This document shows, one piece after another, positions 3,589-52,020 of a stretch of DNA of 64,000 nucleotides. The translations under genes and the position numbers were made by a program. Each line of letters opens with the position of its first letter. Position 1 is the stretch's first letter. The stretch is taken from the NCBI GenBank assembly GCA_010093605.1, contig MU004188.1:1937918-2001917 (forward strand), in the 5' to 3' direction. A model generated the notes under the pieces. It had not been told where the DNA came from. It did no database searches and saw nothing but the letters and a program-made list of their open reading frames with translations. This DNA is from Lophium mytilinum. Taxonomy: Eukaryota.

Positions 3589-4990
3589 CACGTGTCAATC
3601 ACATGCTCTCAAGTCTTGGCGGGCTTTTGCGAGTATAAAATCTTCTCAGATTGGTGTCTAGATTTCTTTCTCCATAGGTTGAGTTCTTTGGATCAAAAGG
3701 ATTGTACACGAAAGCCATGGAGGAGTTGGTGTGGACTGAGTATTTCAACTACACTCCGATGGCGCCTCTCATGGTGCTGGTGGGGACTGTGCTGTCCAAA
3801 AGAAAGAGGCAGCCAAGCATGGTTTCGGGGAGTGGTTTTGTCGGTGGCGTGCTCAAAAAGTGACGATAATGAGGAGCTTCTCTTTCAATCAATCCTTTAC
3901 CTTTCTACCATCCATCGTCGCTGACATCTACAAGCCCCTCTAATCATTCCATCTCATAATTCCTTAACCTCATTGCACATCACCATCTATCAAAATACTC
4001 TGCATCATCGTCGATTCCCCTTACTCGCCCACTCCACTCCCAACCCAAGCGCACTCCATCGAGCTCGCCTAAGAGTGTTGATGAAAGTCCACTCCTCCAT
4101 TCAACCTTCTTCTCGCCTCCGAGCCAGCCATATGCCAGTCGGACAGTTGCGTTCAACAAGCCCACACAGCCATGCGCAGAAGTTCTTCCACTGCTGATCT
4201 CCTCCGTCCCTCGTCCAGTGAAGAAAAAGTAACAGCTGCAACCGAGAAGTCTTTTATACCCGAGAAGAAATCTAAATCAGGTCACGTGGGATATCACATG
4301 CCCCTTTCCCACACCGCCAGGTTCCCCGCTTGGACGTCGAAGGCTAGATGAGTGGATGGGTAGTGGTCTCACGCTCACGGGATCGGGGTGCAGCGCACGT
4401 GCGACCAACGTAACACGGCAGTCGAGGGGGTATATAAACTTCTTCGCCGGCGAGGTGGAGGAGCATGGCAGAGGGAGAGTTGGAGAATCAACACATGCTA
4501 AGACTGGACCCAATGGTGTGGGGCTGGGTTGTGCAAGTGCCGCTATACGGTCTCTGCATGTTGCGGCTGTGGTGGGATATCAATCCCATGCACAATATCG
4601 TGTAATGGTGGCGGGCCGGAAGTTCGGAGGACGAGAGTGGTTCATCGATGATGCTAGTCGACAATGATCATGAATTCTAAGGAGCATTTCTAGTAGAATG
4701 TGATGTCTGATGTAGAATTTCACACGAGATGAGCTTTGAAGAAGGGGGGAGGGGATGGAGAGCATCACTACTATGCTGTTAAGTGACGCCGACCAACTAA
4801 ATTTCAACTTCCCAGCCATTTGGATCCGTCTCGGGTCTTTTTGCCAGATCCAATCCTTTCCAGCTCCCAGCCATCGGAAATCTCACTCCTTGTTGTTTAA
4901 TTTGACACCCTTGCCCGATTCCCTTGATGAAAAAGTAGAAACGGGAGCGAGAGACTCTTATATACGCTAGCGCAGCTCGGAGATCACGGG
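3589..4990. other. Cluster 1 of E-box/TATA-headed ATGG...YCAA array units (4 units: +,-,+,-)
   Basis: TATA boxes at 3634(+), 4258(-), 4431(+) and 4964(-). CACGTG at 3589, 4283 and 4396. ATGG/ATG elements at 3717/3771/3819 and 4465/4513/4558/4605. Confidence 0.6.
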
Positions 4991-5411
4991 CTGAAAACTC
5001 CTTTCGCCGACATCGCTTTGGTGAATGGGATTGCTGTGAGCGATTAGGAGGCGCTGACCTTGTGCGCGTTTTGTTTTCGGTTGTGACTATGAAGTATAAG
5101 AGTGATTAGTTTATCAATGCTTGAGCTATTTCTACCTATCTAATTCCCTTAAGCCAGTCTTGATTGAAGCTATCTAATGAATTTGAGCCTTGATAAATCA
5201 TGAAAGAACATCCATCCCGCCCTCTAGCTCTAACAGCAATAGAAAAGAACAGTCTAGAAGCTATCATCAAAGCCCCTTCAAGATCGAGCGTAACCTCGAA
5301 ACTAGTCCCCCATTCCAGCTCTTAGCGATATTGTCTAATCTATTTCGAACCCAGTAGCATCTAAAAGAAATAGAACATAAGGGGTGTAGCACAAGAAACC
5401 ATCGACAAAAC

Positions 5412-6708
5412 TCACCAGCCACACCCTTCGCATCCGTCACTCTTCTCCGCGCCCAGCAACGACTTCACCCCCTCCCCCACTCCCTCCGCAGCAACCTTCT
5501 CCTCCTTCCGCAGCTGAATCCAATAATACGCCTGGCTTTCCCGCTTCTCACATTGATGTCCGCACTCGCACTTGACTCCACGATCGCGATGGTGTCCGGG
5601 CTCGCACTCCCGCCTTCGCATATCCACCAGCACTTCATCGCGCTCGCATTCCTGCTTGCGCATAGTCCTGAGCATATCTGTCGCCCAAGCCGCGATGGCG
5701 TCTTCTCTGAGATACTCCGGGATAGCGTATGGCGTGAAGGTGGAAGGAATAGCGATAGGGTGGAGGAGGATCTTGAGTAAGTCATCTCCGGACTCCTCGC
5801 TCTCGAGATGGGCTTCCGATTCTTCGGCTTCGCTAAGCTGGCAGCAGAGGAATTCCATCTTAACGCTTTGTAAGCGCGGAACTTTGCGGACGAGTTCTTT
5901 GAGGGTGCTAGGGATGATGTCTAAAGCGGAGAGCTTAGTGTTGTTGAGAGAATGGTGGTGCGGGTGGAGAGTCAAAGAGCGGAGACTCGGGCAGTGCTGA
6001 GCAACGTAACGGATGGAGAGAGCGAATTTAGCAAGACGACCTCGATGCGATTCTTTGAAGGTGTCCAGCTCGCTGAAGGGCTTGGAAATGTAGGAGTATG
6101 TGTAGTTCGACACGCAGCCGATTTCGTCGGTGAGGGTGATGGATGTCATAACTTGGAATGGGAACGGGGAGAGGTTCCATTGGAAGGGACTGGTAGACTG
6201 CGTATTAGAGACACGTTGAGGATGAGTGTAAGGAAATGAAGTGCTTACGACTCCCACCCTCGCCAAAGCTTGTTTCCCAGTGGGAAGTCAAATACGGCTT
6301 CAACGTTATTCAGGAAGAGGGACCAGACGTCCATGGCGAAGAAAGTGTTTAGACACAGGACTGCGCGGAGTTCGGGCAGGGCTTCGTGCTCTACGACAGA
6401 GTATGTATGCTATCAGTCGGATCAGTGAGGGTTGAAGCTTCGAACATTTTAGGAGAGTAGCTTACGAGCTCGCCGGTCTCAGGGTACAGCACGTCGAACC
6501 ACGCTCGGCTGAGTGCCATCATCTCTTGGGTATGGAAGTTCACAGATTTCAGAATTGTCTGCCCTACCGCTGGACAGCCCCAAGAGAAGCTTTCGTACAT
6601 AACCTTACGCAAGATGGGGAATCCGAGGGACGAATAGACATGTTGGCGGAGCTCGGTTGGGAGCAGCTCAAGCCGGCTTGGACGATAGATCTTTGACTGC
6701 CTGGGCAT
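5412..6708 (-). CDS. Multi-exon F-box-like hypothetical protein
   Basis: N-terminal LELLPTELRQHVY resembles an F-box. A GTAAGC donor near 6465 and CTGAT..AG acceptor near 6410 give an open exon. The distal ORF contains CPSLRSLTL. Confidence 0.6.
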
Positions 6709-50915: not shown

Positions 50916-51129
50916 ATGTGAAGCCGTTTTCGGTAGTAGTGAATACATGTATTCTGAACTTAAATTTGTCTTCCTGTCGTTATTTTGCCCTAGAGTTCTT
51001 TGACCCAATGCTCCTTGACCTATTCTAACCTCTGCATCATGTGACAGTCACCTTTTCTTCTCCCTTCCTCAGCAATCACGAATGATCTCGTGACCTCTCC
51101 TACATTCCTCACCAAAGTCATGTGTTCCG

Positions 51130-52020
51130 CACGTGCTTTAGATTATCTTCGAGTATATAAATCTCTCCGGCCTCCGCTCAGGACTTTTTCCCTTGATCAG
51201 GGAAGTCGGATGCTTGGTTAAGACAGTAACACCGCTGCCCCCATGGAGTGGGCGGTTGAACAGTGGGTTCAAGGGAATCAAAGAGGGCGTAAGAATGCCT
51301 CATGGTAAAGTCTGGTGTCGCGGTTGGATCATCTCAAGTTCAACAAGGCAAATGGAGTGGCGGAGTCGGAGTAAAACGGTGTTAGGAGCTTCGATATGGT
51401 GGGCAACAGCGATAGTTGGTAATGACGGGTAGCCTTTCCGGCTGTTAGTGATGTGTAGATTTTGAGGGTTGTCGTAGTGAGCATATCTAAGACGTAGGGG
51501 TGGATGGAAGAAATATGTAGTAAGAGCGGCAGTTTCTAGGGTCTGACGAGGATCTTGGAAGTGAACGCCCCATGGCCCTTTCCATCTCTTCTATTGCGCA
51601 TCTGAAAAGTTATCAGATCTAGTCTCGTCCTGATAGTAGGCTCACGATGACCTTGGTCGAGTCTCGTGACATCTTAGCTCTTCGACTCGTCGCAGAACAA
51701 CCCATGTCTCGTGCCACAGCGACTATCCCTCCAGCCTTAGTGAGGTCACATCCTTATCTCGTGCTCTGCTTTTTCTATCCACTATATAAAGCCCCCACCT
51801 TCGTCCTAGACTTCTTTCTCATGGACAGGGAACAAGGTCTGGCGTTGTTGTTCAAACACTGAAATCAATCTGATATTATGGAGGGAGTACTTTTTTCGGG
51901 AGTCCAAAATCCTCCTGCCCACCAGTTTGATGGTGGGTTTGCGCCTTGTTGTTGGAATAGCCAGTGGTTGCAGGGGGGTTGTTATATGGCTGAAATGGTG
52001 ACGAGCAGCTTTGTTTCCTG
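51130..52020 (+). other. Cluster 4 of E-box/TATA-headed ATGG...YCAA array units (2 tandem units)
   Basis: Unit 1: CACGTG 51130, TATATAAA 51154, ATGG at 51243/51302/51352/51396. Unit 2: GTCACAT 51745, TATATAAA 51783, ATGG at 51821/51878/51930/51986. Confidence 0.58.

Follow-up and report, generated by a model that had tools for sequence, protein, structure and literature searches.

A 64-kb stretch of Lophium mytilinum contig MU004188.1 (64,000 nt; hereafter the window) holds, in four gaps between genes, a family of short, promoter-headed modular units that is genuine, statistically solid and, within the limits of what could be tested, apparently undescribed. Each unit has a head with E-boxes, a TATA box and a pyrimidine tract, and a body in which short modules opening with ATGG recur. 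The long open reading frames (ORFs) of the window belong to ordinary eukaryotic housekeeping genes, among them carbonic anhydrase, methionyl-tRNA synthetase (MetRS), a ribosomal L1/L10a-family protein, a GPN-type GTPase, and CwfJ, ankyrin and SDR proteins, and all four unit-bearing regions lie in gaps between, or adjoining, the 3' ends of genes. An earlier note on this DNA had described about 13 such arrays. By mapping the heads mechanically on both strands, we found 13 units in the four gaps and could add that both strands are occupied; all five of the example modules quoted in the note (at 4465, 4513, 27413, 41224, and 51878) were recovered. The reported observation is therefore confirmed as real, and it is stronger than first described. 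The plus-strand heads lie at 3589, 4396, 27279, 40822, 41882, 51119, and 51745 and the minus-strand heads at 4300, 4992, 28205, 40750, 41815, and 42536, and the units are composed as follows.

U1, 3589..3880, plus strand: E-boxes CACGTG at 3589 and CACATG at 3600; TATAAAA at 3634; pyrimidine tract GATTTCTTTCT; body with four ATGG, at 3717, 3759, 3771, and 3819.
U2, 3880..4300, minus strand, convergent partner of U1: E-boxes at 4300 and 4288; TATAAAA at 4258; eight ATGG.
U3, 4396..4790, plus strand, divergent from U2 (TATA-to-TATA 173 nt): E-box CACGTG at 4396; TATATAA at 4431; modules at 4465 and 4513.
U4, 4790..4992, minus strand, convergent partner of U3: degenerate E-box CCCGTG at about 4990; TATATAA at 4964; body of two modules 55 nt apart, which are residual tandem duplicates.
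U5, 27279..27610, plus strand: E-boxes at 27279 and 27288; TATAAAA at 27321; GATTTCTTTCT tract; four ATGG.
U6, 27790..28205, minus strand, convergent partner of U5: E-box CACATG at about 28200; degenerate TATGAAA at 28165; modules at 28077 and 27918.
U13, 40330..40750, minus strand: E-box-like CACGTA at about 40745; TATAAAA at 40708; G-rich body from 40700 down to 40330.
U7, 40822..41410, plus strand, divergent from U13: CCCGTG twice (40824 and 40835); TATTAAA at 40859; 11 ATGG.
U8, 41410..41815, minus strand, convergent partner of U7: E-box CACATG at 41815; TATAAAA at 41779.
U9, 41882..42300, plus strand, divergent from U8 (TATA-to-TATA 137 nt): E-boxes CACATG at 41882 and CACGTG at 41893; TATAAAA at 41916; nine ATGG.
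U10, 42200..42536, minus strand, atypical: full head (CACGTG twice, TATAAAA at 42500) with a body that is C-rich, not G-rich, and runs antisense into U9.
U11, 51119..51545, plus strand: E-boxes CATGTG at 51119 and CACGTG at 51130; TATATAA at 51154; five ATGG.
U12, 51745..52040, plus strand: degenerate E-boxes CACATC and CTCGTG; TATATAA at 51783; GACTTCTTTCT tract; five ATGG; module at 51878.

Along the window the units are ordered U1-> <-U2 U3-> <-U4 (3.6-5.0 kb), U5-> <-U6 (27.3-28.2 kb), <-U13 U7-> <-U8 U9-> <-U10 (40.3-42.5 kb), and U11-> U12-> (51.1-52.0 kb), alternating between tail-to-tail (convergent) and head-to-head (divergent) neighbors, the latter with 137-173 nt from TATA to TATA. 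U10 was excluded from the body statistics because of its C-rich body. It also contains a 98-amino-acid ORF (42114-42407, minus strand) that crosses the U9 body in antisense orientation and for which neither a recorded nor a homologous protein was found.

The head layout claimed in the earlier note, that of E-box, TATA box, and pyrimidine tract, is present across the units. Each head opens with one RTCACRTG-like E-box or a pair of them and continues through a TATA box and a pyrimidine tract into a leader that is poor in ATG. Ten of the 13 units have TATAAA, which the other ~58 kb contain only five times on both strands together, and the remaining three units have boxes of the TATTAAA, TATGAAA, or TATATAA type. 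The E-box-like sites, usually two and about 11 nt apart, lie at -25 to -47 relative to the TATA box, and no E-box-plus-TATA match in the window lies outside the units. An ATGG follows at TATA+81 to +97 in 11 of the 13 units. Alignment of the 13 heads gave the consensus GTCACGTG-N5-CACGTGACC ... GTATAAAA ... TTCTCC ... pyrimidine tract ... GGnGGA ... ATCAA ... CCATGG, in which the leader ends in ATCAA ahead of the anchored ATGG. The TATA box, the E-boxes at a fixed offset, and the pyrimidine/initiator tract are the sequence features of an RNA polymerase II (Pol II) core promoter under the control of a basic helix-loop-helix (bHLH) factor. According to a study in Aspergillus niger, footprints from the assay for transposase-accessible chromatin with sequencing link the motif TCACGTGATC to bHLH factors, and the motif drives a reporter (PMC8419926). 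The E-box core of the units, RTCACRTG, is that footprinted E-box and, as in A. niger, lies upstream of the core promoter; in A. niger, however, TCACGTGATC marks the genes of ribosomal proteins and translation, whereas in the window the motif together with a TATA box is found only at the units (PMC8419926). A link to a ribosomal regulon through the E-box was ruled out, the promoter of the ribosomal protein gene in the window (53480-54080) having no CACGTG.

Downstream of the head lies a G-rich, C-poor body of ~270-300 nt composed of modules, each with an ATGG, a G/T-rich core of 20-30 nt, a BCAA, and a linker. Aligned modules read ATGG(A/T)G, a G/T-rich core nearly free of C, G(T/A)TCAA(C/A)A, and a C-containing linker. 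In the mean of the 12 typical units, G exceeds C from TATA+25 to about +300, with a G-C skew of up to 0.45, and the excess fades beyond. The borders and the period of ~45-55 nt that had been claimed both stood up to controls of 500 dinucleotide shuffles, none of which reached the observed values: in 11 bodies, ATGG occurs 59 times versus 33.2 ± 4.9, and 22 of 48 spacings between ATGG fall within 40-60 nt versus 3.7 ± 1.9. With U13 added (12 bodies), the counts are 63 versus 36.2 ± 5.0 for ATGG (z 5.4) and 188 versus 135.9 ± 7.3 for TGG (z 7.2), and TCAA is enriched as well (z 4.0). The end border [TCG]CAA occurs 61 times versus 42.3 ± 5.5 and lies at +15 to +34 of 26 of the 63 ATGG (41%), as against 19% in shuffles (0/500 for each). 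No enrichment over shuffles was observed in the 12 bodies for ATGA, ATGT, ATGC, or TTGA, and the ATGG signal is therefore strand-specific and not that of the palindrome CATG alone. When strict modules were counted over the whole window independently of the heads, 14 of 22 fell on the sense strand of units, which makes up 4% of the two-strand space (binomial 6e-15).

The units have no sequence in common that can be aligned. Comparison of the 13 units by blastn-short returned only motif matches of 10-15 nt (E at least 0.026), the sole long match being the overlap of the coordinates assigned to U9 and U10. In the absence of alignable shared sequence, the family is not a transposon, a long terminal repeat (LTR), or a recent repeat, and miniature inverted-repeat transposable elements and solo LTRs were ruled out on the same ground. 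TRF (score of at least 30) detected no array of module periodicity within the units. Traces of duplication are nevertheless visible within them. U7 contains three tandem copies of 126-142 nt with three modules each and 65% column identity, and the best-kept columns among the copies are the TCATGG and CCCATG anchors, with TCATGG and TGG invariant. U5 has a 37-nt internal duplicate at 44-nt spacing, and U4 and U8 have residual duplicates of 55 and 59 nt. Between U7 and U8, complementarity of the two arms is significant (z -4.6 with whole-sequence shuffles, and -4.23 with arm-wise shuffles, of which 0/40 were as low), whereas the pairs U1/U2, U3/U4, and U5/U6 have none (z -0.07, +0.28, and -0.59). 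From the internal duplicates and the complementarity of the U7/U8 arms, the family seems to expand through duplications, both tandem and inverted, and to drift thereafter with only the head and the borders conserved. At the center of the U7/U8 pair there is also a short inverted repeat, GGTAGGCGGTATC ... GATACCTACC (41381-41485, minus strand). Elsewhere the window has five longer tandem repeats that are unrelated to the units, at 9357-10021, 10422-10614, 16976-17458, 26786-27104, and 58461-58811, with periods of 108/216, 107, 118 (4.1 copies, 89% matches), 176, and 144 nt, respectively; some of them are probably inside coding sequence.

Neither known RNA families nor stable structures were found in the units. 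Searches of Rfam gave no match in them at the gathering score or at E<=5, ARAGORN found no tRNA gene in the window, and a test for box C/D geometry (RUGAUGA, with CUGA 45-140 nt downstream and a stem of at least 4 bp) gave one weak candidate in the units and one elsewhere. On these results, no small nucleolar RNA (snoRNA), tRNA, or member of any Rfam family was recognized in the units. The candidate in the units, near 41485 (minus strand) at the U7/U8 center, reads GTGATGA ... CTGA over 105 nt with a 4-bp stem. The one outside them, at 185-279 (minus strand), has ATGATGA, a CTGA 95 nt on, and an 8-bp terminal stem; it matches nothing in Rfam and is possibly an unannotated snoRNA near the carbonic anhydrase gene. 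The fold of the U7 body is no more stable than those of shuffles (z +1.27), and neither this body nor three of the four convergent pairs shows the hairpin precursor of a microRNA-like or small interfering RNA, U7/U8 being the exception. G-quadruplexes were ruled out as well, with only two G3-type motifs in 12 bodies, and the 3'-end motif GATTAGG, with nine sites in the window, is not specific to the units.

Coding potential was considered for special classes of peptide. Five ORFs in the window end in CaaX, none of them in or within 100 nt of a unit, and a lipopeptide pheromone precursor of the a-factor type was ruled out accordingly. A basidiomycete pheromone locus was also ruled out: the units contain no CaaX ORF, no STE3-type or other special gene is among the 36 long ORFs, and the host is an ascomycete. 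On the latter point, a 281-amino-acid exon of MetRS is 99% identical to a protein attributed to a Mytilinidiales Dothideomycete and 80-87% identical to those of other Pezizomycotina, and judged by such identities the DNA of the window is that of a Dothideomycete, an ascomycete. A repeated polypeptide or a precursor of ribosomally synthesized and post-translationally modified peptides was ruled out by the frame tests that are given below.

We then looked beyond the window in 59 metagenome loci (442 kb) with genes for relatives of the MetRS (51-85% identity), a mixed set of mostly distant taxa. A detector of head plus body gave eight matches (six units) in the 64-kb window versus one in the 442 kb, which is borderline and lies in a distant locus (L039). 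Strict modules occur at 0.34 per kb in the window versus 0.10 per kb in the comparison set, where no cluster of three strict modules was found. The scan indicates that the grammar of the units is not a general fungal promoter architecture; with taxa so mixed and distant, it is weak evidence on close relatives. The earlier note had recognized no described fungal element in the arrays, and they also match no described element among those tested. In the literature searched, to the extent that the sources could be seen, no comparable element was found, which is not proof that there is none in print.

Because the cores might act as guides, the complementarity of 63 elements to the rest of the window was measured. 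There is no general antisense match: the mean z is 0.16 versus -0.01 for reversed controls, and three elements reach z>=2 versus two among the controls. Two cores stand out. The U12 core (51878-51907, plus strand) forms an antisense duplex of 22 nt with plus-strand positions 3384-3405, free of mismatches and including three G.U pairs, a score reached by 1 of 3000 core shuffles; the partner site is in an open frame just downstream of a methyltransferase-like ORF, and we read it as the last exon or the 3' untranslated region of that gene. The U6 module (the 27918 element; 27901-27917, ATGG anchor included) has a 17-nt perfect complement at plus-strand positions 55434-55450, reached by none of 3000 shuffles, ~415 nt past the stop of the ribosomal protein ORF and within the same RNA contig. 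Both partner sites are on the sense strand of plus-strand genes or of their downstream RNA. Given 63 elements and two metrics picked after seeing the data, these two outliers are a lead, not a result. In the same ribosomal protein gene, the RNA contig omits 129 nt at 54225-54355 (plus strand) with the noncanonical ends TA..AG and carries, where the flanks join, 15 further letters that come in two variants; these letters are probably a micro-exon that failed to be placed in the alignment.

Several known systems resemble the units in part. The Xist A-repeat, the NORAD repeat units, and fission-yeast meiRNA, with its clusters of Mmi1-binding motifs, are modular-repeat long non-coding RNAs that work by binding many copies of one protein, and the Xist A-repeat has a period of ~50 nt. 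Like these, a unit would combine several short conserved motifs and variable spacers in one Pol II transcript. They are, however, single loci with usually much longer RNAs and well-conserved repeat cores, whereas the units are 12-13 dispersed mini-loci of ~300 nt with conserved borders, variable cores, and one stereotyped promoter. The mini-genes of nematode 21U-RNAs (Piwi-interacting RNAs), to which the earlier note had likened the arrays, are also many small loci with an upstream motif and a variable transcribed sequence. The analogy fails on one point: every 21U-RNA is preceded, at a set distance, by a motif of its own, whereas the units have one E-box/TATA head for 2-8 modules. Fungal snoRNA genes, whether polycistronic or transcribed independently, are likewise short, TATA-driven, non-coding intergenic units with short boxes around a variable guide, and both they and the units would show poorly in poly(A)-type RNA data; the units differ in having no C/D geometry apart from the weak candidate, modules of ~50 nt that are too short, and no Rfam match. 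With G-rich minisatellites the units share strand asymmetry, G-rich repeats of tens of bases, and local tandem duplication, but their copies are too diverged for TRF, are in register with a promoter head, and have strand-specific borders.

The window thus presents directly a grammar with its enrichment, the absence of coding, structural, and repeat-family signals, and traces of duplication. To account for these we tentatively favor, with a probability of about 0.4, the reading that the units give rise to short Pol II transcripts that are inducible and non-coding and carry the module array as a multivalent RNA platform. The units would constitute a lineage-restricted family of short, independently promoted Pol II transcription units. 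In the head, bHLH-type E-boxes about one helical turn apart would precede the TATA box, followed by the pyrimidine tract and a CA-type start, and a bHLH factor would switch on the transcript in circumstances other than those sampled. The transcript is predicted to be a non-coding RNA of ~270-350 nt, rich in G and U, poor in C, and unstructured, with a body of 2-8 diverged modules of ~50 nt, each comprising AUGG, a G/U-rich core of 20-30 nt, UCAA(C/A)A, and a C-containing linker. The arrays would have grown via local tandem and inverted duplication, the cores drifting while the borders were kept, and the RNA may be a multivalent platform or decoy that offers repeated UGG/GU-rich sites, separated by a fixed spacer, to one RNA-binding factor. 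We infer that the heads fire, and likewise which way the RNA runs and where it ends, that a factor binds it, and whatever role it may have in the biology of the fungus.

Several observations weigh against this reading. Expression was taken from one RNA run in the form of spliced contigs, which give neither strand nor ends; unit bins have a trace depth of 0.6-0.8 versus 75-15,000 for neighboring genes (the bin at 37335-38001 has a depth of 0, and missing cover there proves nothing). The limits of the bodies were chosen by eye before shuffling, which is why the head-independent count of strict modules was also run. The apparent constraint is judged only from paralogues within one window, and the proposed platform, with its putative binding factor, is drawn by analogy with other long non-coding RNAs. 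Finally, the leader is poor in ATG (8 versus 14.8 ± 3.7; 63 of 2000 shuffles as low) and the body rich in it (81 versus 51.1 ± 6.7; 1 of 2000 shuffles as high), a pattern that, together with the anchored first ATGG, is also expected of a translated mRNA, and TGG is mildly phased with ATG (38/31/19 by frame).

These last features are what would be seen if the units were mRNAs in which the first ATGG, and perhaps later ones by reinitiation, start short peptides of 6-72 amino acids rich in Trp, Gly, and Met (of the type M-E-W...W-V-Q), the kept ATG and TGG being the single codons for Met and Trp. Such micro-peptide genes would fit an ATG-poor leader that is followed by an ATGG anchored at TATA+81 to +97 in 11 of 13 units, the G that comes next after 60 of 107 ATG, the preference of TGG for frame 0, the invariance of TCATGG and TGG between the three U7 copies, and the several in-frame ATGG of U1, U3, U7a, and U7b, which give ORFs of 36-48 amino acids with recurring x-P-M joints. 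Yet the ATG frame shows no shortage of stops (27/29/27 by frame), and the open run from ATGG, with a median of 21 codons versus 17 elsewhere, is no longer than expected (p 0.10). The earlier note had seen no common reading frame in the elements, and indeed only 17 of the 48 ATGG spacings are multiples of three, while the periods of the duplicates (44, 55, 59, and 126-127 nt) and their indels (3, 8, 16, and 21 nt) do not preserve the frame. The context at -3 is weak, 13 of 62 ATGG having an A there, and the first ORFs share no common end and no CaaX. None of 18 unit ORFs, sense or antisense, is recorded in a collection of 15 billion proteins in which the species' own MetRS is present; homologue searches with two ORFs found nothing, an exhaustive search with a third returned only six weak matches to unrelated repeat proteins, none of them a real homologue, and a language-model search gave no usable match. 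We consider micro-peptide genes unlikely on balance. A little more doubtful is the proposal that the transcript is cut at its AUGG and UCAA borders into G/U-rich RNAs of ~25-30 nt that recognize sense mRNAs through base pairing in which G.U wobble is used; new cores would arise via duplication and drift or via capture of gene fragments. The interpretation in the earlier note, that of precursors cut into UGG-initiated RNAs of ~20-28 nt, is thus supported in part: its promoter heads and its conserved borders around variable cores are borne out, and the units do not behave as ordinary coding genes, but the proposed cutting found no direct support. Conserved borders around variable cores, a module length that fits a small RNA, a first module that starts at the predicted transcription start with or without an ATGG, the unusually good pairing of the U12 and U6 cores with mRNA-strand sequence, and the long hairpin that U7/U8 could form if read through all suit such guide arrays. 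The 63 elements nevertheless have no general complementarity, the two outliers rest on post hoc metrics (~0.02 family-wise each), and with bodies unstructured and three of four pairs free of hairpins there is no obvious substrate for Dicer; no fungal pathway is known to produce such RNAs.

Alternatively, the RNA itself may have no role, and the G-rich, skewed modules may work at the level of DNA or by being transcribed, for instance as insulators, as zones prone to R-loops in which transcription pauses or terminates, or as recombination sites resembling minisatellites, in the gaps at gene 3' ends. The position of all four regions between or beside gene 3' ends suggests this, as does a G-C skew of 0.2-0.45 that extends ~300 nt downstream of the start and is of the kind that favors R-loops. 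The skew also switches sharply where convergent bodies meet in three of four pairs, U5 and U6 being separated by a gap of ~190 nt, and the residual tandem duplicates look like a decayed G-rich minisatellite. We nonetheless find it improbable that the units are DNA-level elements of this type, to much the same degree as for micro-peptides: the inner units of arrays (-> <- -> <-) face no gene, a passive terminator needs no dedicated E-box/TATA head, this reading does not account for ATGG and TCAA borders that are strand-specific and fixed in their spacing, and both G3-type quadruplex motifs and TRF arrays are nearly or wholly absent. Least likely of all, in our view, are neutral relics, that is, old local duplications of one promoter-bearing fragment that are decaying, with the grammar reflecting ancestry and composition. 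The traces of tandem and inverted duplication, the trace expression in one RNA run, and the lack of relatives, beyond the one borderline detector match, in the 442 kb from other fungi or eukaryotes would all be consistent with such relics. No alignable sequence is left among the units, and yet the TATA box, the E-box offsets, the anchored ATGG, the spacing, and BCAA are far above shuffles. Decay would erase short motifs first, and the kept grammar therefore speaks against relics, as does the finding that the anchors are the best-kept columns between the U7 copies.

Even if the units were silent relics, they would still show how local tandem and inverted duplication fills gaps at gene 3' ends. 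If instead, as in the favored reading of promoted non-coding transcripts, the heads fire, the fungus would possess, per 64 kb, at least a dozen mini-genes under common control, of a type wholly overlooked by gene callers and RNA-family libraries. Their shared promoter may be likened in its stereotypy to those of histone or small nuclear RNA genes, and the grammar of their bodies has been kept although the sequence has drifted past alignment. Conserved borders around free cores have the look of guide or decoy RNAs. The family would mark a bHLH regulon that could be read directly from the genome, and it would offer a tractable system for the origin and maintenance of modular non-coding RNAs in fungi.

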